Shown: positions 8,623 to 56,149, counted from the stretch's first letter. The stretch is 64,000 bases of DNA from Centroscyllium fabricii (GCA_051313645.2 JBNRSN020000002.1:319858001-319922000); one strand, 5' to 3'. Translations and numbers: made by a program. The notes: a model not told the origin generated them from the sequence alone.

Positions 8623-11600
8623 TGTCATAGGTTGGTTCTTCCCCTTTAACTCTTAGGTTGGCTCTTCCCCTTTAACTGGTTATCACCTCGTTAGCTCCAG
8701 TGCCTGCACCTGATTGAACAGCCCAGATTCACCAGTGGTAATCAAGAGCTGTATATAAGCTCCTACTTTCCACCTAGAGGTTGCCAGATCGTTATTCTTT
8801 CTGACTGTGATACCTGTGTTTAGTTCCTAGCTCTCTGATCCTGTCTGTTCGAGATACTGACCTGCTTACTGGAAATTTGGATTCTCTTCTGCCTGAACTC
8901 TGTTTTGGATTTGTCGCTCCCGTGGACGGACTATCCGGTATTGTACTGTTTCTGAATTTGGATTCTCTTCTGCCTGAACTCTGTTTTGGATTTGTCGCTC
9001 CCGTGGACGGACTACCGTATTGTACTGTTTCTGAATTTGGATTCTCTTCTGCCTGAACTCTGTTTTGGACTTGTTGCCTCCGTGAACTTTCTGCCGTTAT
9101 TGACCCACAAGGTCTCACACCCGAACCCCGGGTCTGGGTCCCGGAGTGTTATGCCGGTGAACCTGAGGAATGCAATCCCTTCCTCACAAACTGTTCCATT
9201 CTTTTTGCATTATCCAGGCGCGTCGACGTGAGAGACGACTGGGAACGACTGGTCGACCTCCTCCGAAACGGTCTCAAGAGATTTTCGTGGCACCCAGGTC
9301 TACTGCGACAGCAAGGTCACAGTCAGTGGAGCCCGAACCTATGCAGTTGGGTCGCACCAGCCTCTCATTGGAGGAGCATGAACGACGCCGCCAGGGGAAT
9401 CTCTGTCTGTACTGTGGCCAGGCCGGCCATTTTGTTTCCCAATGCCCAGCAAAAGGCCGGGCTCAACAATAGATGGGGTCGTACTGGTGAGCCGAACTCC
9501 TACAAGACTCTCTTCCAATCCACGACCCTTGTGCCAGGCCAGACTTCTTCTGCCCAGTGGATCCCAGACTCTCGCCACCTTTATTGACTCTGGAGCCGAC
9601 GTTAACATTATTGATGAGGATCTTGTCACAGAGCTGGAGATTGACCGGGTTCCTCTGCCGCAGCCGGTTCCTGCCAACGCCCTCGACGGTCACCTCCTGG
9701 GAACGGTGACACATCAGACCTCACCGGTTCACATGCTTATGTCGGGTAATCATTATGAAAGTATTCAGTTTCATATTCTGAAATCACCTCGGCTTCCTTT
9801 GATTCTGGGACACACTTGGCTTCGCCGCCACAACCCCCACATTGACTGGAACACGGGAACTATTCTGGGGTGGAGTTCCTACTGTCACCAGGTCTGTCTG
9901 AAACAGGCTACCGTCTCCCGACAGCCATTAACACCTCTTCCCGCTTCTGATCTTTCGGTGGTCCCCACTGAATACCACGATTTTAGGGAGGTATTCAGCA
10001 AGGCTAGAGCCACGTCGCTGCCTCCACATCGCCCCTATGACTGCGTCATTGATCTGCTGCCAGGTTCTTCCCCACCCAAGGGACGCCTGTATTCCTTGTC
10101 TGCACCTGAGAGGGAAGCAATGGAAACGTACATCAGCGACTCTATGGCGGCGGGGATCATCCGTTCCTCTTCATCACCTGCTGGGGCTGGATTCTTTTTT
10201 GTTGGTAAGAAGGACGGGTCGCTGCGACCATGCATCGACTACAGGGGTGTAAGGAGTGTGCATATTGCGACCTTACAGGGGTCTTAATGACATCACGATA
10301 AAGAACCGGTATCCTCTTCCTCTCATCTCTTCTGCCTTTGAGTTGCTACAGGGGGCGATCATCTTTACCAAGCTTGACCTTCGTAACGCCTATCACCTGG
10401 TCCGGATCCGAGAGGGCGATGAATGGAAGACAGCTTTCAACACTCCCTCTGGACATTATGAATACCTCGTAATGCCGTTCGGGTTAACCAACGCCCCGGC
10501 GGTATTCCAAGCCTTGGTGAATGACGTGTTAAGAGACATGCTGAACCGGTTTGTGTTCGTTTACATGGACGACATTTTGATTTTTTCTAAGTCTCGTGAT
10601 GAGCATGTTCACCATGTCCAGACTGTCCTGCAACGGCTTCTCGAGAACTCGTTATTTGTGAAGGCGGAGAAGTGTGAGTTTCACGTCACTACCGTATCTT
10701 TCTTGGGGTACATCATTGCGCAGGGGAGCGTGCAGATGGATCCAGAGAAGGTGTCAGCTGTCGCGTCTTGGCCTATTCCGGAGACACGTAAACAGCTACA
10801 GCGGTTCCTGGGGTTCGCTAACTTCTATCGAAGATTCATTCGCGGCTACAGCACGGTAGCGGCCCCGTTATCGGCCCTTACCTCCTCTAAGGTGCCGTTT
10901 CTGTGGTCTTCTGCAGCGGAGGAGGCTTTTCGAGGTCTCAGGTCCCGGTTCACCTCTGCTCCCATTCTCCAGGTGCCTGATCCGGATCAGCAGTTCGTGG
11001 TAGAGGTGGACGCATCAGATGTTGGAGTAGGGGCTATTCTGTCCCAACATTCTGCTTCCGACCAAAAGCTACATCCCTGTGCCTATTTTTCTAAACACCT
11101 GTCCTCGGCTGAGATGAATTATGACATCGGGAACCGGGAGTTACTGGTGGTCAAGATGGCATTGGAGGAGTGGCGCCATTGGCTAGAGGGGACCAAGCTG
11201 CCGTTCCTAGTCTGGACAGACCATAAGAACCTCGAATACATTCGCACGGCCAAGAGGCTGAATTCACGGCAGGCTAGGTGGTCCCTCTTCTTTACCCGTT
11301 TCAACTTCACCCTCTCCTACCGGCCTGGTTCTCGCAATGTCAAGCCTGATGCTCTGTCCCGCCAGTTCCAGAAGGAGGAGAGTTCCGCTCCTGGATCTGA
11401 CCTCATCCTTCCAGCTCCATGTCTGATTGCTGCCGTTACGTGGGAGATCGAGGAGAGGGTGAGATCAGCCATGGAGAATCAGGCTGGACCCAGCGGTTGT
11501 CCTCCCGACCGTCTATTCGTTCCCAAGGACCTTCGACCTGATGTTCTCCAGTGGGCCCATGCTTCCAAGCTTTCCTGCCATCCGGGGACTCAAAGGACCA

Positions 11601-13543
11601 AGGAGGTTATACTGCGGAGGTTCTGGTGGGATACTCTGGAAGAAGACACCCGGGAGTTTGTCAACGCCTGCTCAGTCTGCAACCAACACAAGCCGTCTCA
11701 TCGGGCTCCCGCTGGTCTTCTGCAACCTCTGCCGGTGCCACATCGTCCTTGGTCCCACATATCCTTGGACTTTGTTACCGGTCTGCCTCCATCCAAGGGA
11801 CTAACCACTATCCTGACAGTGGTGGACCGATTCAGCAAGATGGCTCATTTCATACCTCTGCCTAAATTGCCCTCGGCGAAGGAGACGGCTGAACTTATGC
11901 TGCAACATGTTTTCCGTCTTCATGGTCTTCCTGTCGACGTAGTCTCTGATCGGGGTCCACAGTTTACGTCAGTATTCTGGAGGGAGTTCTGCAGTCTGAT
12001 CGGGGCCACAGTCAGTCTGTCTTCGGGTTTTCATCCGCAGTCCAACGGGCAGTCTGAACGCATGAATCAGGAGATGGAGAAGGCTCTACGATGTATGGTC
12101 TCCCAGAATCCCTCTTCCTGGTCCCAGTTACTCCTGTGGGTAGAGTACGCCCACAACACCCTGACCAGTTCCGCCACCGGACTCTCCCCGTTCCAGTGCG
12201 CCTATGGGTTCCAGCCCCCATTGTTTCCGGACCTGGAGAGGGAGGTTTCCTGTCCGTCCGTCCAGTCATTTATTCATCGTTGTCGCCGGACATGGGACCA
12301 GGCACGGACTTCGTTGCTTCGCTCAGCGGACCGCTACTCTGCTGCTACCAACCGTCGTCGCTCGGAGGCTCCTAACTATCAGGCTGGTCAGAAGGTGTGG
12401 CTCTCCACTAAGGACCTGCCCCTCCAGGTGGAGTCTAAGAAGCTAGCTCCCAGGTTTATCGGTCCCTTCGAGATCCAGAGGGTCATCAACCCAGCGGCAG
12501 TGAGACTCAAGCTTCCTCGATCCATACGGGTTCATCCCACTTTTCATGTGTCACGGGTCAAACCAGCACGAGAGAGTACATTGGTGCCTGTTGCCACGCC
12601 CCCTCCGCCTCCTCGTATGCTCGACGGGGGGTTGGTCTACACTGTTCGCCGCCTACTTCGCTCCCGTCGCCGAGGGAGAGGACTTCAGTACCTGGTGGAC
12701 TGGGAGGTGTATGGACCAGAGGAGAGGTCCTGGGTTCCTGCTCGTCACATTGTTGATCCTCAGCTTATGGCCGACTTCCACAGAAGGCATCCCGACCAGC
12801 CGAGTAGGAGGACTGCGCTCCCTGGGGAGCCTGCGCAAGGGCCCAGTTCCGTGCATCCTCCTGAAACCCTGGACGAGGAGGTGCAATCCTCTGATGAGGA
12901 GAATTCCCTTCATTCTAGTGATGAAATGGACATGGATGAGGGTCCCGAGGAATATTAGTCCCTCCTCCGCACCCCTCCGCCCACCCGACTCCGCCATTTG
13001 GGGTTTGGGACGTCGGGAGCCGTCCCTTGAGGGGGGGGTTCTGTCATAGGTTGGTTCTTCCCCTTTAACTCTTAGGTTGGCTCTTCCCCTTTAACTGGTT
13101 ATCACCTCGTTAGCTCTACTGCCTGCACCTGATTGAACAGCCCAGATTCACCAGTGGTAATCAAGAGCAGTATATAAGCTCCTACTTTCCACCTAGAGGT
13201 TGCCAGATCATTATTCTTTCTGAATGTGATACCTGTGTTTAGTTCCTAGCTCTCTGATCCTGTCTGTTCGGGATACTGACCTGCTTACTGGAAATTTGGA
13301 TTCTCTTCTGCCTGAACTCTGTTTTGGATTTGTCGCTCCCGTGGACGGACTACCCGGTATTGTACTGTTTCTGAATTTGGATTCTCTTCTGCCTGAACTC
13401 TGTTTTGGACTTGTTGCCTCCGTGAACTTTCTGCCGTTATTGACCTACTGTTTCCTATGTCTTTTACTGCTCAGAAATAAAGGAGTTTACTTCTACGTAT
13501 GTTTTCGGTGTATTGCATTTGGGCCCAACCTACAACCGTTCCA
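8623..13543 (+). mobile_element. Ty3/Gypsy chromovirus (Tf1/sushi group), with deletions removing the 5'LTR end, PBS and most of gag
   Basis: 5'LTR 8623-~9105 (truncated), 3'LTR 13042-13543, polypurine tract GAGGGGGGGG before 13042, 5-bp TSD ACTTT (8618-8622/13544-13548), CCHC knuckle [14 protein letters not shown]. Confidence 0.95.
9442..12958 (+). pseudogene. Gypsy Pol: protease, RT, RNase H, integrase, chromodomain; one frameshift from a 34-bp insertion at 10248-10281
   Basis: [49 protein letters not shown], chromodomain [17 protein letters not shown]. Confidence 0.95.
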
Positions 13544-15634
13544 ACTTTACAACTTCCAAAAAATATATATTCCACTGAGAAGAAAAGGGTGTAAAAGAAA
13601 AGACAGCCATCCGTGGCTAAGTAACGAAATTAAGGATAGTATTCGACAAAAAACAAGGGCTTATAAGGTAGCCAAAACTAGTGGGAGGGTGGAGGATTGG
13701 GTAAAATTTAAAAGACAGCAAAAAACAACAAAAGGATTGATTAAGAAAGGGAAGATAGATTATGAAAGTAAATTAGCAAAAAATTTAAAAACAGATAGTA
13801 AGAGTTTCTATAGTTATATAAAAAGAAAAAGGGTGGCTAAAGTAAATGTAGGTCCCTTAGAGGATGAGACTGGGAAATTAATGGTGAGAAATATGGAGAT
13901 GGCAAAAACACTAAATGAATATTTTGTATCAGTCTTTACAGCAGAGGACACTAAGAATATCCCAACACTAGACAAACAGGGGACTATGGGGGGGCAGGAG
14001 CTAAAGATGATCAAAATCACTAAGGAAGTGGTACTCGGTAAAATAATGGGGCTCAAGGCAGATAAATCACCTGGACCTGATGGCTTACATCCTAGGGTCT
14101 TGAGGGAAGTGGCGGTAGGCATTGTGGATGCATTGGTAATCATTTTCCAAAACTCCCTGGACTCAGCAAAGGTCCCAGCAGACTGGAAAACTGCTAATGT
14201 AACACCCTTATTTAAAAAAGACAGTAGACAGAAGGCTGGAAACTATAGACCGGTTAGCCGAACATCTGTCGTGGGTAAAATTTTGGAGTCCATTATTAAG
14301 GAGACAGTAACAGGACATTTGGATAAACATAATTTAATAGGACAAAGTCAGCATGGTTTTATGAAGGGGAAGTCTTGTTTGACAAATTTGTTGGAGTTCT
14401 TTGAGGAAGTAACATATAGGGTGGATAAAGGGGAACCAGTGGACGTAGTGTATTTAGACTTTCAAAAGGCATTTGACAAGGTGCCACACAAAAGATTATT
14501 GCTTAAAATAAAAAATCACAGAATTGGGGGTAATATTCTGGCATGGATAGAGGATTGGCTATCTAACAGAAAGCAGAGAGTTGGGATAAATGGCTCATTC
14601 TCAGACTGGCAATCGGTAACTAGTGGTGTTCCACAAGGGTCAGTGCTGGGTCCCCAGCTCTTTACAATCTATATGAACGATTTGGAGGAGGGGGCCGTGT
14701 GTAACATATCAAAGTTTGCAGATGATACTAAGATGGGAGGGAAAGTGGTGAGTGAGGAGGACATAAAAAACCTGCAAGGGGACATAGACAGGCTAAGTAA
14801 GTGGGCGGAGATTTGGCAGATGGAATACAATACTGCAAAGTGTGAGGTTATGCACTTTGGCAGGAAGAATCGTAGAGCAAGTTATTATCTTAATGGCAAG
14901 AAACTGGAAAGTACTGTAGTGCAAAGGGATCTGGGGGTTCTGGTGCACGAAACTCAAAAGGTTAGTATGCAGGTGCAGCAAGTGATCAAGAAGGCTAATG
15001 GAATGTTGGCTTTCATTGCTAGGGGTATAGAATATAAAAATAGGGAGGTATTGCTTCAGTTGTACAAGGTATTGGTGAGACCGCACCTGGAATACTGCAT
15101 ACAGTTTTGGTGTCCATACTTAAGAAAGGACATACTTGCTCTCGCGTCAGTACAAAGAAGGTTCACTCGGTTAATCCCAGGGATGAGAGGTTGGACATAT
15201 GAGGAGAGGTTGAGCAGATTGGGACTCTACTCATTGGAGTTCTGAAGAATCAGGGGTGATCTTGTTGAAACATATAAGATTGTGAAGGGTTTGGATCGGG
15301 TGGACGCGGGGAGGATGTTCCCAATGATGGGTGAAACTAGAACTAGGGGGCATAATCTTAGAATAAGGGGCTGCTCTTTCAAAACCGAGATGAGGAGAAA
15401 CTACTTCACTCAAAGGGTGGTAGGTCCATGGAACATGCTGCCCCCAAAAGCTGTAGAAGCTACTTCATTACATAAATTTAAAACCGAAATAGACAGCTTC
15501 CTAGAAGTAAAAGGGATTAAGGGTTATGGGGAGCGGGCAGGAATTTGGACATGAGTCTAGGTTCAGATCGGTCATGGCCCTGTGGGTAGTGGAGTGGGCC
15601 CAGGGAACATGTAGCCTGATCCTGCTCCTATTTC

Positions 15635-17137: not shown

Positions 17138-19373
17138 GACACGTGTCTTTTAGTTTCTGTGGGTAAAATATTCCAGTGCCCATAATTCTCTCTATGAGCC
17201 ATTCATGGGTTACACCTGCAAATAACATTTTATAATCTTCATCAGTTATAACACGTCTCTCAAATGCCTGGTTCTTTCTTGAAAGAAACACAAAGGAGCT
17301 GCTGCTTGAACTCGCTGCTGGACTCACATAGTCCAATTCTGAGCCACTGCTTGAAAAAAAAGGTGATTTGTACCAGGATGTAAAGGAGGTGTTGGAGTTC
17401 TGGCTGCTGTTAAGAGGCTGGTTACTCAAGCTGTCACCTCCATTTTCACCTTCTGTTGGTGACACTTTGTTGCACCCTTTGTCAGATTCCTTGTTGGGTA
17501 GCAAACATTGAGTCGAACTATTCTTCCTAAGGATTGCACCATGATTATGTGTCTCTTGTTTCTTGTTTTCATTTGGATGTTCATGTACAATCTCAGAAGC
17601 TCCTCCGGTAGTTGGAAAATTATTGCTTTCTTCTGTGCCATCAACAGTCTCTGCTGTAGGGTCAATGTCTATCATTTCAAATGACCCACTTTCCTCTGAT
17701 AAAGACAGGCTTTTCTTCGTAAAACTCATTAAATTATTGCTGCCAATTGAGGTAGGCTTTGCAGCATTTGAACCTGGCTGCAAACAAGAGGATTTGGCCT
17801 GGCCATATTCACTTGTGACTGGAAGCATCTTGTTCACATCATCTTGTATGTCATCAGCTGTCTCAGCATCAGAGTCAACTATCTCAAAGGAGCCACTCTC
17901 TCCTGGAGAAGAGGAGGTAATTTTTCTAATGTTCTCTGCATCTGAATGAGCTGTTGAAGTTTGATATGCAGTTCTACAAGTTGGATCTGAGGTAGAGTAA
18001 GGACTTTGATCATGTCCAGGGGTCTTTATATAACTGTCTGTTATGTTATCCCCTTCATTGTCATCAGCAGTCTCGCCATCAGGGTCAACCATTTTGAATG
18101 ACCTGTGCTCTTCTGAGGATGAAAATGAAGGAGTTTTCTTCCTCATATTGCCTGGATTACCATCAGTGTTTGAAGTGGCTGAAGAATCTTTAACTTGTGT
18201 ATACTGTAGGGACAACTGATGCATTGCTGGAATGATGGACTGTAAAGTACTATTATTTAAATTACAATCTTTGCTCTCCATATTGTGACCTCTCTGCTGA
18301 TGCACTCTGACTTCATCAGTTAAGATTGTTGAGCATTCTGTGTCCACAGTGAGCAGATATGGTTTCCTTCCATCCTCGGGTAGCTCATTGCCTTTGCTGC
18401 TGATCACTTCCTCCCAGATGCCAGAAGATCCTGACCCATATGCTTTGAACCAGGATTTCAAGGAGGAGCTGGAGCCATGGCTGTTGCTCAGAGATTCTGT
18501 GCATCCTTTATCGGCGTTGCCCTTGCCCTCTGATGTTAAATCATCCAATTCTGTCTCAGCATCTGTTGACACATGTGATGGGTCATTTCTTAAACAGCCA
18601 TGGGGAACTCTACTGTATTTCAAAGAGTCTGCATTTTGTTTCTCTGATTTGCTTGCACTCGATAATTCAATGCTCCTGTACTGTAACCCTTCATTGTTTT
18701 TTCTCACTGTTGTCCCTTTTGGTAGAGGATGCTGAGGAAGATCATGGTCACTGGGGTGGGGTGTGCTTACTTTGGCATCAGCAGTATCAAATTCTTTTGT
18801 TTCGGTCTTGAAAGCAGTTATACAGGTATGTGCTGAGGTCTCTCTGCTACATTGTGGTCTTCTGCAAGTACTTTCAAATACTGTGCATATTGTTGTGTGA
18901 TACTGTTTGTGTCTTTCAAGGATTTCATCTAAGGTCATCCTTCCCTTTACTATCGGCTTATTCCAATAATGCTTATAGTGGTCTGGGACATAAGACTTAA
19001 CATCAGAATTGCAGAGATCTTTTATTTGCAAATTAACTTTGACTTGGCTGATCAGTTTCATGATTTCCTGTGCCAAAGTTTCCTGGGTTTGAGTGCTGTA
19101 CAGGTACAATTTTTCCATTGCTTCTTTACATATTTGTCTTGTCTCTGTAAGATTTTCACTGTTATCCGTGAGCCACTTGTGCACCGTTGTAAGAGAGAAG
19201 GCTGCTTTAACAAACCCATGCAGTTCTTGCTTACTTGTTATCACTTCACCATCTTTCATGGTAGAGAGAGCTATTTCAAAGGCCTCCTTTGCTTGTGAAA
19301 GGTAGAATTGTCTTTCTTCCTCTGACCTTTCCTTCTTAAAACTATATGAAAGGAGACATGTTCCATAAATGTT
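17138..19373 (-). CDS. ALPK1: ALPK1 large exon (end of ADP-heptose-binding domain, Ser/acidic linker, start of kinase region); 2236 nt, phase 0 to 1
   Basis: NIYGTCLLSYS..AKEAFEI..KQELHGFVKAAFSLTTVH..CKEAMEKLY..SYVP..CITAFKTE..VDTECST..AGVTHEWL..TGIF match recalled human ALPK1. Acceptor ttcttcctccccag at 19374; donor gtaagt at 17137. Confidence 0.95.
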
Positions 19374-50108: not shown

Positions 50109-53100
50109 CTAACAGTCCTCGGGACCCTCCTCTATGTCCATCTCATCAGCAGACTGAAGGGAATCCTCCTCATTATCAGATTCTACCTCCTCGTTATTAG
50201 ATGCTATCTCCGCGTTCAGGGTCTCCTGGAACTGCACGGGACCGAACCCTTGTCCAGACTCCTCAGGGGTCGCAGTCCTCTTACTTGGCTGGTCGGGATG
50301 CCTCCTGTGAAAATCAACCATGAGTTGAGGATCCACTATATGGCGAGCAGGAACCCAGGACCTCTCTTCTGGACCATACCCCTCCCAGTCCACCAGGTAC
50401 TGAAGTCCTCTCCCTCGACGACGGGAGCGCAGTAGGCGACGAACCGTGTAGACCAACCCACCGTCGAGCATACGAGGTGGAGGGGGCGCGGCAACAGGTA
50501 CCAAGGCACTCTCACGTGCTGGTTTGATGCGTGAGACGTGAAATGTGGGATGAACCCGCATGGATTGAGGGAGCTTGAGTCTCACAGCAGCTGGGTTGAT
50601 GATTTTCTGGACCTCGAAGGGTCCGATAAACCGGGGAGCAAGCTTCTTCGACTCCACTTGTAGAGGCAGGTCCTTGGTGGAGAGCCACACCTTCTGCCCA
50701 ACCTGATATTCAGGAGCCTCCGAACGACGACGGTTGGCAGCAGCCGAGTATCGATCCGCCGAGCGAAGCAACGAAGTCCGCGCCTGGTCCCATGTTCGGC
50801 GACAACGCTGAATAAATGCCTGGACGGACGGACAGGAAACCTCCTTCTCTAGGTCCGGAAACAATGGAGGCTGGAATCCATAGGCACACTGGAAAGGGGA
50901 GAGTCCGGTGGCGGAGCTGGTCAAAGTGTTGTGAGCGTATTCTACCCACAGGAGTAACTGGGACCAGGAAGAGGGATTCTGGGAGACCATGCATCGGAGC
51001 GCCTTCTCCATCTCTTGATTCATCCGTTCTGACTGCCCATTGGACTGTGGATGAAACCCCGACGACAGACTGACTGTGGCCCCGATCAGACTGCAAAACT
51101 CCCTCCAGAATACCGATGTAAATTGAGGACCTCGATCGGAGACTACGTCTAACGGAAGCCCATGAAGTCGGAAAACGTGTTGTAGCATGAGTTCCGCTGT
51201 CTCCTTCGCAGAGGGCAGTTTTGGTAGAGGTATAAAGTATCTTACTGAATCGGTCCACCACAGTCAGGACCGTGGTTAGTCCCTTGGATGAGGGCACACC
51301 GGTGACAAAGTCCAAGGATATGTGGGACCAAGGACGATGTGGTATCGGTAGAGGTTGCAGAAGACCAGCAGGGGCCTGACGAGACGGCTTGTGTTGACTA
51401 CATACCGAGCATGCGTTAACAAACTCCCGGGTATCCTCCTCCAGAGTGTCCCACCAGAACCTCCGCAATATAACTTCCTTGGTCCTTTGAGCCCCCGGAT
51501 GGCAGGAAAGCTTGGAAGCATGGGCCCATAGGAGGACTTCCGGTCGAATGTTCGTGGGAATGAATAGACGGTCGGGAGGACAACCGCTGGGTCCAGCCTG
51601 ATCCCCCACGGCTGATCTCACTCTCTCCTCGATTTCCCACGTAACCGCAGCAATCAGACAAGGAGCTGGCAGGATAAGGTCCGATCCAGGAGCGGAGCCC
51701 TCCTCCTTCTGGAACTGGCGGGACAGAGCATCGGGCTTGACGTTGCGGGAACCAGGCCTGTAGGAGAGGGTGAAGTTGAACCATGTAAAAAAGAGAGACC
51801 ACCTAGCCTGTCGTGAATTCAACCTCTTGGCCGTGCGTATATATTCCAGGTTTTTGTGGTCAGTCCATACTAGGAACGGCAGCTTGGTCCCCTCTAGCCA
51901 ATGGCGCCACTCCTCCAATGCCATCTTGACCGCCAGTAATTCCCGGTTCCCGATGTCATAGTTCATCTCAGCCGGGGACAGGCGCTTGGAGAAATAGGCA
52001 CAGGGATGTAGCTTTTGATCTGAAGCCGAATGTTGAGATAGAATAGCTCCTACTCCCACATCAGATGCATCCACCTCTACCACGAACTGTTGATCCGGAT
52101 CAGGCACCTGGAGAATGGGAGCAGAAGTGAACCGGGACCTGAGATCTCGAAAGGCCTCCTCCGCTGCGGGAGACCACATGAACGGCACCCTTGAGGAGGT
52201 AAGAGCCGATAACGGAGCTGCTACCGTACTGTAGCTACGAATGAATCGTCGATAAAAATTGGTGAATCCCAGAAACCGCTGTAGTTGTTTGCGTGTCTCA
52301 GGATTAGGCCATGACGCAACCGCTGACACCTTCTCTGGATCCATCTGCACGCTCCCTTGCGCAATGATATACCCCAGGAAAGAGACGGTAGTGACATGAA
52401 ATTCACATTTCTCTGCCTTTACAAACAATGAGTTCTCCAGGAGTCGTTGTAGGACCGTCTGGACGTGGTGCACATGCTCCTCCTGAGATTTGGAAAAGAT
52501 CAGAATGTCGTCCATGTACACAAACACAAATCTATTCAGCATGTCACGTAGAATATCATTAACCAAGGCCTGGAATACCGCCGGAGCGTTGGTCAACCCG
52601 AACGGCATAACGAGGTACTCATAATGTCCAGAGGGGGTGTTGAAAGCAGTCTTCCATTCATCGCCCTCTCGTATCCGGACCAGATGATAAGCGTTACGGA
52701 GATCCAGCTTAGTAAATATGGTCGCCCCCTGTAGCAACTCAAAAGCCGAAGAGATGAGAGGAAGAGGATACCGGTTCTTCACCGTAATGTCATTCAGTCC
52801 CCTGTAGTCGATGCATGGTCGCAGCGACCCGTCCTTCTTGCCCACGAAAAAGAATCCAGCCCCAGCTGGTGATGAAGAGGAACGGATGATCCCCGCCGCC
52901 ATAGAGTCACCGATGTATGTTTCCATGGCCTCCCTCTCAGGTGCCGACAAAGAATACAGACGTCCCTTGGGTGGGGAAGAACCTGGCAGCAAATCAATGG
53001 TGCAGTCATAGGGGCGATGTGGAGGCAGCGACGTGGCTCTAGCCTTGCTGAACACCTCCCTAAAATCATGGTAATCGGTGGGGACCACTGAAAGATCTGA

Positions 53101-53605
53101 AGCGGGAAGAGGTGTTACTGGCTGCCGGATGACGGTAGCTTGTTTCAGACAGACCTGGTGACAGGAGGGACTCCACCCCAAAATGGCTCCCGTGTTCCAG
53201 TCAATGTGAGGGTTGTGGCGGCGAAGCCAAGTGTGTCCCAGAATTAGAGGAAGCCGAGGTGATTTCAAGATGTGAAATCGAATGCTTTCATGATGGTTCC
53301 CTGACAGAAGCATATGAATCGGTGAGGTCTGATGTGTCACCGTTCCCAGGAGGTGGCCGTCAAGGGCGTTGGCAGGAACCGGCTGTGGCAGTGGGACCCG
53401 GTCGATCTCCAGTTGTGTGACCAGATCTTCATCGATGATGTTGACGTCCGCTCCAGAGTCAATGAAGGTGGTGAGCGTCTGGGATCCACTGGGAAGAAGA
53501 AGTCTGGCCTGGCACAAGGGTCGTGGATTGGGAGAGAGTCTAGTCAGAGTTCGACTCACCAGTACGACTCCATCTACTGGTGAGTCCGGTCTTTTGCTGG
53601 ACATT
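50109..53605 (-). pseudogene. Gypsy Pol (PR-RT-RH-IN-chromodomain), one frameshift near 51240
   Basis: ORFs 50710..53664 and 50109..51188; small deletion after VDRFSK relative to the plus-strand copy. Confidence 0.95.
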
Positions 53606-54542
53606 GGGAAATAAAATGGCCGGCCTGACCACAGTACAAGCAGAGATTTCCCCTGCGGCGTCATTTATGCTCCACCAATGAGATACAGGTGCGACCCAAC
53701 TGCATTGGTTCGGGGCCCACTGGCTCTGACCCTGCTGTCGCAGTATTCCTGGACGCCACGAATATCTCCTGAGTCCGTTTCGGAGGATGTCGACCAGTCG
53801 TTCCCAGTAGTCTCTCACGTCGACGCGCCTGGATACGGAGATCGATCCTAGTGGCAAGACTAATAAGTTCATCCAGGGTGGAAGGGAGATCATATGAGAC
53901 CAGTTTGTCCTTGATGCAGCCTGCAAGCCCATGAAGAAACACGTCACATAAAGCAGCCGCATTCCAATTACTCAGCCGGGCCCTGATTCGAAAGTCTATT
54001 GAGTAATCAGCAACTGTCTGATTGCCCTGGCTCAGATTCATGAGTCCCCGAGCTGCTTCAGAGCCGAAGGTTACCATGCCGAACACCCTTCTTAATTCAG
54101 TAGCGAATCCCTTGAAAGAAGTGCAAGCCTGAGTCTCCCTCTCCCACTCGGCGGTTCCCCAAAGACGAGCTCTTCCAGTGAGGTGGTTAATCACAAAGGC
54201 TACCTTTGCCGTCTCATTGGCAAAGGTGCGGGGCTGTAATGAGAACAAAATGGAACAGTTAGTGATAAAGGGATTACATTGCTCCGGTTCACCGGCATAA
54301 CGTTCCGGTACCCCGACTCGGGGTTCGGGTGTGAGGCCTTGTAGGTGAGGCATGGGTGCCGACACCGATGCTGAAGCCGGTTCTGGTGGTGGTGAAATCT
54401 CTACCGGATCCGACGCTGCTCGCGAGTTCCAGGCGGCGGTTAGCTGCTCCATTTGGGTGATCATATTCCCCAAAGCCTGCCCCTGGTGTGATAGGGCGTC
54501 TTCAATGTGTGCCAGACGCTTCGGTGTGTCTGCTGGGTCCAT
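53574..54542 (-). pseudogene. Gypsy Gag (PEG10/sushi-like capsid plus CCHC knuckle), premature TGA at 53661-53663
   Basis: MDPAD..PERYAG..HLTGRARLW..LSQG..VADYSIDFR..PEPMQLG, then [14 protein letters not shown] after a CGA>TGA-type stop. Confidence 0.92.
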
Positions 54543-56149
54543 TCTTGGCCAGATCATTCTGTAACGGTTGGTGGTAGGGCCCAAATGCAGAACACCGGAA
54601 GTCAGTGTAGAAATAAAATTCTTTTATTTTTGAGTCATCAAAGATATATAAACATAAAGTCAGTAACTGCAGTGTTCACAGAGAATAAACAAGTCTTTAA
54701 ACCAGAGTTCAAGTAATAGAGGTTAACAAGTCCAAACCAGAGTTCAGGTGATAGAGAGCAATAAGTCCAAATGTAGAAACAGTAATTCTCCAGGTAGTCC
54801 GCTTCACCGAAGGGACAAAACCCCAGCACAGAGTTCCAGCAGTAGAATCCAATTCTTCTGCAGCAGGTTAGAAACACAATTCGACTGGATCAGAGAGTAG
54901 AAACAGAACACAGGTATCATAGTAACAGAAATAACGATCTGGCAAACTCCTGGTGCCAGGTGGAAGCTTATAAACAGCTCAAGCTATATTGGTTGATTAG
55001 AGCTGTCCAATCCGGTGTATGCAATACTAAACGAGGTATTGGCCAATTAAAGGGAGAAGAAGCATCTAGAATTTAAAGGGGAATCCCACTCATGACATCT
55101 CCACTCCCGTGGGCGGGAGCTCGAAGTTCATCGGGCCATGGTCGGGCCTCTCCACTCCCGTGGGCGGAGCTTGGAGTTTCGTTGGGCCTCTCCACTCCCG
55201 TGGGTGGGAGCTCGAAGTTCGCAGGGCTGTGGTCGGGCATCTCCACTCCCGTGGGCGGGAGCTCAAAGTTCGCCGGGCCGTGGTCGGGCCTCTCCACTCC
55301 CGTGGGCGGGAGCTCGAAGTTCGCCGGGCCGCGGGTCGGGCCTCAGTATCTTCACTCCTGTGGTGATCCGGCGTTTCGTTGGGGTCTGTCCTCGGGCCGA
55401 CGGTCGGACATCAGGCCTCTAGTTTTTTTTTTTCTCGCTCCCGTAATCATTGAGGACCTCGAATCAGTAGTTATCGTTACAGTTATCGTTATGGTTGTTA
55501 GTTAACAACATCGAGCTCTGGAGCCGGAGCACTAGCGGACCCTCAACGATGGCGCCGGAAAATGGCTTGACGTCTTGCGGGTTCCGGGCGTGCTATGTTT
55601 CTAGTGTTTTTTTTGTTGTTAATTGTTATGTAGCACGTGGAATAGCAGTAGGCATTTCACTAATTGAATTTGTGTTCTTTTATGTGACAATAAAATTTAC
55701 TTTACTTTCCTTTACTTTACTTACCCTGGCGTGGTGTCCGGATGTCGGGATGCCCACAGTTGACCTGGCAAAATTGAAAAAAGCCTCTTAACTGCCTGTT
55801 AACTACCTGTTAACAGGCAGTTAAGTGCCTATAATCCTCTTCCTGCCGCTAGGTGTCGGGTCCCTGTGCAAATCGGGGACCCGACACTTGGGAAGAATGT
55901 ATGGAGGCGGGCTGACAGCGGGTTCGGGACCTGCTGTCAATCTTTGCAATTTTGTCAGCAGTCCCGCCTCCAAACCTGCCCCCTGAGCGCCGGCAAAATT
56001 CCCCCCTTTAGTTTCCAGTCATGCAGGTGAAGAATGGTCATTTAGCTGAGGGGGCCAGTGGTGCCTGTGAAACCATACTACAGGAGAGGAGGGTTAAGAG
56101 AAGAAATTCTTCAGGGAAAATTAGAAGAGGAAAAAAGATCATCACAAAC

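Follow-up and report, generated by a model that had tools for sequence, protein, structure and literature searches.

What is the long disordered linker of ALPK1 for? The question is raised by a 64,000-nucleotide stretch of the Centroscyllium fabricii genome (GCA_051313645.2 JBNRSN020000002.1:319858001-319922000), hereafter the window, which carries a large exon of this gene. ALPK1 is the sensor of bacterial ADP-heptose, and its mutation causes ROSAH syndrome. Its linker of about 480 residues has so far been described only as unstructured (PMC10221265, PMC12765290; papers are cited here for their accessible parts). An initial annotation of the window reported three linker units that resembled both the phosphorylation site of the ALPK1 substrate TIFA (Thr9) and an LC3-interacting region (LIR). 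Comparison of orthologues narrows the linker's candidate functional residues and autophosphorylation sites to a few, namely T623, T791, T850, F744 and W595 in chimpanzee numbering.

The exon lies at 17138..19373 on the minus strand (745 codons; residue numbers of the window count from the exon start), between a ccccag acceptor and a GTAAGT donor, which are canonical splice signals. A single open frame holds all three unit peptides, which read as first annotated. The exon spans the tail of the ADP-heptose-binding N-terminal domain, the entire disordered linker and the beginning of the kinase domain; its start matches the ALPK1 N-terminal structure and its end the kinase domain (8zd3_A, E 7e-35; 8zd3_B, E 1e-4). 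The best database matches of its product are shark ALPK1 proteins, the top one, named shark ALPK1, being 85% identical, and four more ALPK1 exons were mapped upstream inside the window. The exon is that of shark ALPK1. In AlphaFold2 models of two orthologues (shark P0003, amphioxus P0218), the linker has a predicted local distance difference test score (pLDDT) below 50.

Analysis of ALPK1 linkers showed that they hold a conserved array of the motif [VILM]-D-x-x-[AGC]-x-T, from amphioxus to apes. For the sample, roughly one linker was taken per lineage, 45 in all: 5 from cartilaginous fishes, 16 from lobe-finned vertebrates, 12 from ray-finned fishes and 12 from jawless or invertebrate animals. 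They were drawn from database-retrieved ALPK1 proteins and bounded by pattern or by hand. Shuffles predicted 2.1 occurrences of the motif, whereas 108 were found; the looser form hD-x4-T, where h is hydrophobic, was found 139 times against 14.9 (the 139 core sites referred to below). The Ser form of the motif occurred 3 times against 5.0 expected, despite Ser being 2.4 times commoner than Thr. Shifted or changed controls gave 17 against 14.6 (hD-x5-T), 14 against 17.0 (hE-x4-T) and 28 against 15.4 (hD-x3-T); of the last, the non-jawed group, which is rich in Thr-Thr pairs, contributed 12 against 3.4. In the folded domains of 11 proteins, hD-x4-T was found 6 times against 3.6 expected. The core motif is specific in both spacing and residue. 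Among 182 jawed-vertebrate proteins, isoforms included, 466 Thr forms were counted against 7 Ser forms.

Retention of the motif above the flanking linker, as first claimed, was borne out by alignment A3 of 71 orthologues (12 cartilaginous fishes and 59 bony vertebrates). Conservation of core and spacer columns was 0.84 and 0.62 in the cartilaginous fishes, and 0.63 and 0.24 in the bony vertebrates (p 1.5e-8). Thr was retained by the bony vertebrates at Thr505 (90%), Thr576 (92%), Thr349 (78%) and Thr435 (37%); the 41 linker Thr have a median of 5%. In units 2 and 3, Thr is near-fixed.

All copies in the window lie on the minus strand. Unit 1 (18060..18143) reads F-K-M-V, an LIR-like element, followed by V-D-P-D-G-E-T435; this Thr is present in 92% of the 12 cartilaginous fishes. 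Unit 2 (17850..17927) has F-E-I-V and then V-D-S-D-A-E-T505, which aligns to chimpanzee T791 and is Thr in 64 of the 71 orthologues. Unit 3 (17637..17717) has F-E-M-I and then I-D-P-T-A-E-T576, aligned to chimpanzee T850 and Thr in 66/71; two additional residues separate F from DP in this unit. A fourth core copy, absent from the initial annotation, lies at 18327..18347 and reads V-D-T-E-C-S-T349 (chimpanzee T623; Thr in 58/71). It is of a Cys type, and the same form is amplified in tarpon, eel and bonytongues. The period between units had been given as 210 nt, or 70 residues. The Ser of the SF pair falls at 18101, 17891 and 17684 (70 and 69 residues apart) and the Thr codons begin at 18071, 17861 and 17648 (70 and 71 residues apart), so the period is close to 70 but inexact. 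Pairwise alignments of the units scored 76, 65 and 75, values reached by 0/2000 shuffles in all 3 comparisons, in windows centred on the motif and hence picked post hoc. The spacers have diverged, as had been noted: no similarity was found in 6/6 comparisons (shuffle fractions 0.20-0.98). At the units, Tandem Repeats Finder gave no array of about 210 nt, and in a Pfam scan with a cut-off of E 0.1 no family matched the motif.

Unit order and copy number were followed in an alignment of 40 orthologues with the window. In coelacanth, amphibians, turtles, lizards, crocodilians and mammals, motifs occupy the same three positions and their order is unchanged. The units of tetrapods are spaced 38-60 residues apart, so the 70-residue period is peculiar to cartilaginous fishes and was rejected as a fixed feature outside them. 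A copy-number expansion in this shark's lineage, as initially proposed, was likewise rejected, the three units being common to jawed vertebrates, as was a recent tandem expansion of the window units, with spacers unrelated and all three units shared with bony vertebrates. True expansions are found in other lineages. Four of the five batoids aligned have an extra block of about 66 residues, whose spacer is still like its neighbour's (score 77, 0/1000 shuffles), the mouse lemur has a 12-residue tandem of unit 3, and gar has four blocks of 93-99 residues; in rays and gar, recent duplications with similar spacers exist. Strict core copies number 5 in tarpon and 7 in eel, and one catshark is without unit 1. 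The core has been re-duplicated separately in rays, gar, tarpon, eel and mouse lemur, and the duplications carry the motif along.

The early-branching teleost linkers (P0194, P0195, P0189, P0193) amplify the Cys form as V-D-x-x-C-P-T-E. Some of these copies are similar to TIFA Thr177 and conform to P-x-E-x-x-acidic, the TRAF6 pattern (5/139 sites). Outside the jawed vertebrates, both folded domains of sturgeon ALPK1 have a match in 12/12 proteins, and amphioxus, annelid, nemertean and mollusc proteins (P0218, P0221, P0223-P0238) match the ALPK1 N-terminal and kinase domains. Because both domains match, a heptose-sensor-like ALPK1 seems widespread in invertebrates.

The aromatic element ahead of each core was considered separately. 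LIRs have acidic or Ser flanks and lie within disordered regions. The LIR core, [W/F/Y]-x-x-[I/L/V] (PMC5538626), fits all three window units (F-K-M-V, F-E-I-V and F-E-M-I), as had been claimed. Ser or Glu lies upstream of the core in 3/3 of them, within the linker of pLDDT <50 in the orthologue model. Across the 45 linkers, the pattern [SDET][FWY][EDV]x[VIL] occurred 89 times against 9.7 expected, and 17/89 of these elements sit 8-13 residues before a core Thr, for a random expectation of 4.5%. The two parts nevertheless come apart. In the 59 bony vertebrates, unit 1 chiefly keeps F-E-x-[IV] (F in 81%) and loses its Thr. The reverse holds in units 2 and 3, where the Thr persists and the LIR core does not: F and the rest of the element are lost from unit 2, and unit 3 has F in 34% with the aliphatic position mostly lost. 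Only 25/139 core sites have an adjacent LIR core, and the amphioxus core copies have no LIR-like element. Each unit joins two separable motifs, of which S-[FW]-E-x-[VIL] is a second, vertebrate-only element.

That the units were selected for ATG8 or FIP200 binding through S-F-E-x-[VI], with the acidic Thr tail as a phosphorylatable flank, would suit the enrichment and placement of the pattern, the fit of the window units and the persistence of the unit-1 Phe. Active ALPK1 also raises LC3B lipidation, although in a STING-dependent way (PMC12236711). The dissociation of the parts, with Thr kept in tetrapod units 2 and 3 where no LIR core is left, and the bare amphioxus copies speak against it, and we regard it as highly improbable. 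The element is possibly a phospho-regulated LIR, but that it functions as a separate element is rather doubtful, and it should not yet be classed as an LIR.

An element of this kind also occurs outside the units. A Ser-rich, LIR-like W-E-E-V lies at 18405..18428 (minus), upstream of the T349 copy, and its W320 is invariant in alignment A3. Teleosts amplify blocks of Ser-rich W and acidic Thr jointly, related to this W-E-E-V before T349. Two Ser-rich blocks of the form S-[HQ]-x-S-x-[ST]-S-[LF]-x-S-W-[FY]-K, at 17300-17425 and 18390-18495 (minus), flank the motif array; both are conserved islands across the 71 orthologues, and similar blocks are amplified in teleosts.

Likeness to TIFA Thr9 was measured next to the core Thr. 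The sequence context given for Thr9 in the initial annotation agrees with the peptides printed in PMC9704527. A profile from 75/83 TIFA proteins reads F-E-[DE]-A-[DE]-T-E-E-T, with F-5 at 85%, E-4 at 96%, E+1 at 97%, E+2 at 99% and T+3 at 100%, the last by construction of the search pattern. Core sites were closer to this profile at -3..+2 than other linker Thr (median 4.6 vs -0.9, p 4e-19). Among the 139 sites, -3 is D/E in 38%, -2 is A in 37% (A/C/G in 78%) and -1 is D/E in 43%; acids at -3 and -1 with Ala at -2 are present in window unit 2 and partly in units 1 and 3. When 42 Thr of the window were ranked by local TIFA likeness, T274, T505, T192 and T435 took places 1-4 and T576 the 6th. 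The claimed resemblance is partial, with agreement at the acidic -3 and -1 and the small -2 in some of the sites. It does not extend to the register, SFE lying at -10..-8 in the units and the corresponding residues at -6..-4 in TIFA, four residues off. Because the register differs, the core is not to be classed as a ligand of the TIFA pThr9 type. The human ALPK1 motifs given with the same claim are present in chimpanzee ALPK1 (P0429), which was read in place of the human sequence.

TIFA itself is a neighbour of ALPK1 in this genome. The linked gene (L013:1492-2055 plus, G000:C711) lies about 293 kb past the window end, on the opposite strand and head-to-head with ALPK1, and its Thr site is intact. 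At its C-terminal motif, Ala-Val-Glu-Thr-Asp-Glu stands in place of the human Ser-Pro-Thr-Glu-Met-Asp, and the Pro-x-Glu TRAF6 motif thus departs from the human form. A second intact TIFA-type gene (L006:1297-1857 minus, G000:C723:67762599-67763159) encodes 187 residues, which in the matched part share 46% identity with the ALPK1-linked TIFA. Its Thr9 is in a less acidic context, a P-x-E motif lies near its C-terminus, and among solved structures it is much nearer TIFA than TIFAB. Its possible identities are a fourth-type paralogue and an unreduced TIFAB orthologue.

The reading that we prefer, tentatively and at rather less than an even chance as a whole, is that the linker Thr are ALPK1 autophosphorylation sites and then transient docks for an FHA domain, most plausibly that of TIFA. 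ALPK1 autophosphorylation depends on ADP-heptose and on kinase activity, and the residues are stated as unidentified in PMC10113258 and PMC9704527. ALPK1 phosphorylates T9S and wild-type TIFA with equal efficiency, yet the mutant is non-signalling (PMC9704527), so a fixed Thr points to a phosphothreonine reader and not solely to the kinase. It would seem that T623, T791 and T850 are probably autophosphorylated. If they are, there is about an even chance that TIFA dimers bind them briefly. ADP-heptose binding would lead ALPK1 to phosphorylate its own core Thr, and the FHA domains of TIFA dimers would bind these for a short time, holding the N-terminal Thr9 of TIFA close to the activated kinase domain. 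Phosphorylated TIFA would then depart and polymerise apart from ALPK1. With the array, signalling would be faster or more sensitive, though not dependent on it, and copy number would tune the effect. A parallel is the docking of SLMAP by the MST2 linker (PMC5663475). TIFA is the simplest reader, since it is the kinase's own FHA-bearing substrate and its genomic neighbour. If true, docking of TIFA, or of a negative regulator, would provide the step that is missing from kinase activation to TIFAsome formation or shut-off, and would help in interpreting ALPK1 linker variants.

Several observations weigh against this reading. Core sites score far below TIFA itself (4.6 vs 18.7 at -3..+2, and 0.9 vs 33.4 at -5..+3). 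The most invariant core features, the hydrophobic -6 and Asp -5, are absent from the TIFA site, and the core has D at -5, T/P at -4, E at +1 in only 27% and T at +3 in 9%, so that F-5, E-4, E+1, E+2 and T+3 of TIFA are mostly unmatched. Thr strictness is weaker evidence than it appears, because conserved Ser columns are about equally strict: 20/27 conserved Ser-majority linker columns likewise carry at most 1 Thr. The core is also missing or reshaped in some teleosts, with 0 strict copies in Solea and Danio aesculapii. From a 2018 study by Zhou, a linker-less pair of N-terminal and kinase domains reportedly signals. The N-terminal and kinase domains assemble into a complex when the linker is absent (PMC12420824), ALPK1 does not colocalise with TIFA condensates (PMC10865109), and in the accessible part of PMC9704527 it is not among the proteins named as TRAF6-enriched after ADP-heptose. 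A stable TIFAsome seed, which the initial annotation had suggested as a possible role of the linker, conflicts with the reported absence from condensates and is disfavoured on that ground. A complex prediction of two shark TIFA chains (residues 11-150) with linker units 1-3, run with neither alignments nor phosphate, scored 0.00 with its controls unfolded, and is evidence neither way.

The final pattern was, moreover, composed with all sequences already in view, and the species sampled are not independent. For the former reason a held-out profile, built from 39 cartilaginous-fish sites only, was tested (24 tests, p values uncorrected). It gave p 0.005 for lamprey, 0.005 for amphioxus, 0.010 for the nemertean Lineus and 0.045 for Owenia, and p <0.05 in 8/12 ray-finned fishes. 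In molluscs, p was <0.05 in 0/8 (0.055-0.61), although 6/8 best matches were still V-D-x4-T shaped. On these data the core motif is secure in chordates and only suggestive in spiralians. Finally, a search for TIFA gave no named match outside jawed vertebrates. Teleost TIFA was likewise missed, so the search was too insensitive to test co-occurrence or to decide on invertebrate TIFA.

The apparent distribution of TIFA, with that caveat on the search, bears on a second explanation, in which the core Thr are autophosphorylated but act in cis. Unphosphorylated, they would be tethered competitors of TIFA; phosphorylated, they would ease substrate access or fill an allosteric phosphate pocket. The motif accompanies ALPK1 into animals where TIFA was not found, and its TIFA likeness is concentrated around the phospho-acceptor, as such a role would have it. 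The kinases eEF2K and MHCK-A use a phosphothreonine in a flexible tail. In TRPM6/7, autophosphorylation of a Ser/Thr-rich stretch just ahead of the alpha-kinase domain enhances phosphorylation of the substrate, but these stretches are not sequence-conserved between TRPM6 and TRPM7 (PMC2267223), whereas spacing and residues are fixed in ALPK1. All motif copies are also undocked in the two AlphaFold2 models, which is weak evidence because phosphates are not modelled. We consider an action in cis unlikely, though it deserves some weight.

The poor match to TIFA at +1..+3, together with the absence of ALPK1 from TIFA condensates, would be accounted for if the phosphothreonine array recruited another reader, such as an FHA protein, a phosphatase or a ubiquitin-ligase adaptor, to switch ALPK1 off. 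We know of no candidate reader that prefers a hydrophobic-Asp pair at -6/-5. In MST2, several autophosphorylated Thr motifs of the linker are read by the FHA domain of SLMAP, which brings in STRIPAK in this manner, but the SLMAP consensus E/D-G-pT-M-x-R/K is unmatched in ALPK1 (PMC5663475). Recruitment of such a reader strikes us as improbable.

The motif could instead have been set by another kinase, CK2 or CK1, or it could serve phosphorylation-free binding of a partner, for example in a vesicle-traffic role of ALPK1. Units 1 and 2 read T-A-D-D, which is CK2-type by the general consensus. An acid occurs at +1..+3 in 105/139 sites, and D/E/S/T at -3 in 69/139. However, an acid stands at +3 itself in only 40/139 sites, in the window only in units 1 and 2, and both kinases leave the fixed -6/-5 pair and the scarcity of Ser forms unexplained. 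Known partner motifs were rare among the 139 sites: LC8 (Q at -1) 0, PxQxT 0, KEAP1 ETGE 0, TRAF2 major 3, TRAF6 5 and PLK1 5. Taken together, this explanation appears rather unlikely. All six partner motifs were rejected on these counts; the TRAF2 and P-x-E patterns came from PMC9704527 and the other linear-motif patterns from general knowledge. CK2-phosphorylated FHA-binding repeats of the MDC1 SDT type were rejected on the same +3 count (40/139), and caspase or granzyme sites of the form V-D-x-D were dropped, Asp being at -3 in 14% of sites.

The docking reading could be widened into a copy-number-tunable array in which phosphothreonines formed in response to ADP-heptose load TIFA through its FHA domain and the adjacent Ser-rich aromatic elements, as phospho-switched LIRs, later pass the activated sensor to ATG8/FIP200. 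The module would have been repeatedly duplicated to tune heptose sensitivity, its Thr half being as old as bilaterians. This combined model is quite improbable.

Other acidic Thr sites lie near the array on the minus strand, two of which, TDAETELDD and EFDTAD, had been annotated correctly. The first, D-A-E-T274-E-L-D-D at 18540..18572, is without the core spacing and is the Thr ranked 1/42 above. E-F-D-T197-A-D, at the linker start (18777..18794), has Thr in 69/71 orthologues and becomes a further core copy in many tetrapods. S-P-T640-E-G-E, at 17445..17462, has an aligned Thr in 65/71; in sturgeon and bowfin this site is a close, in-register look-alike of TIFA Thr9. Long open frames in introns and flanks, at 13230-15554 (plus), 9442-12958 (plus) and 50109-54557 (minus) of the window, are by their appearance presumably LINE reverse transcriptase and Gypsy-like retrotransposon genes.

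These linker motifs were not described in the literature searched, nor was ATG8 binding by the aromatic element, and the accessible parts of PMC13283784 and PMC8419686 hold no linker data; subscription papers for the most part, among them the structural ones of 2018 and 2024, were beyond reach, as were phosphosite databases and mass spectrometry tables, so the sites may be on record there. Like ALPK1, MST1/2 are kinases with a disordered linker bearing several copies of a Thr motif, redundant in MST1/2. Their TM motifs also bind MOB1. They differ in kinase fold and in motif, E/D-G-pT-M-x-R/K against hD-x-x-[AGC]-x-T; linker phosphorylation and reader are inferred for ALPK1, and its proposed reader would double as substrate. 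TRPM6/7 offer an alpha-kinase precedent for linker autophosphorylation that aids substrate capture, with dozens of sites in an unconserved region (PMC2267223), whereas ALPK1 has few, discrete, spacing-fixed and Thr-only repeats. With the pThr9-FHA pair of TIFA, the ALPK1 core shares the proposed kinase and the Thr acceptor, in part of the sites the acids at -3/-1 and the small -2, and often the acidic +2, but its hydrophobic-acidic pair lies at -6/-5 and not at -5/-4, and +1E, +2E and +3T are mostly missing. The aromatic element shares with the LIR/AIM (ATG8-interacting motif) of ATG8-binding proteins the [WFY]xx[LIV] core, Ser and acidic flanks and predicted disorder, and differs in being retained in 1/3 units in tetrapods and absent from the amphioxus copies.

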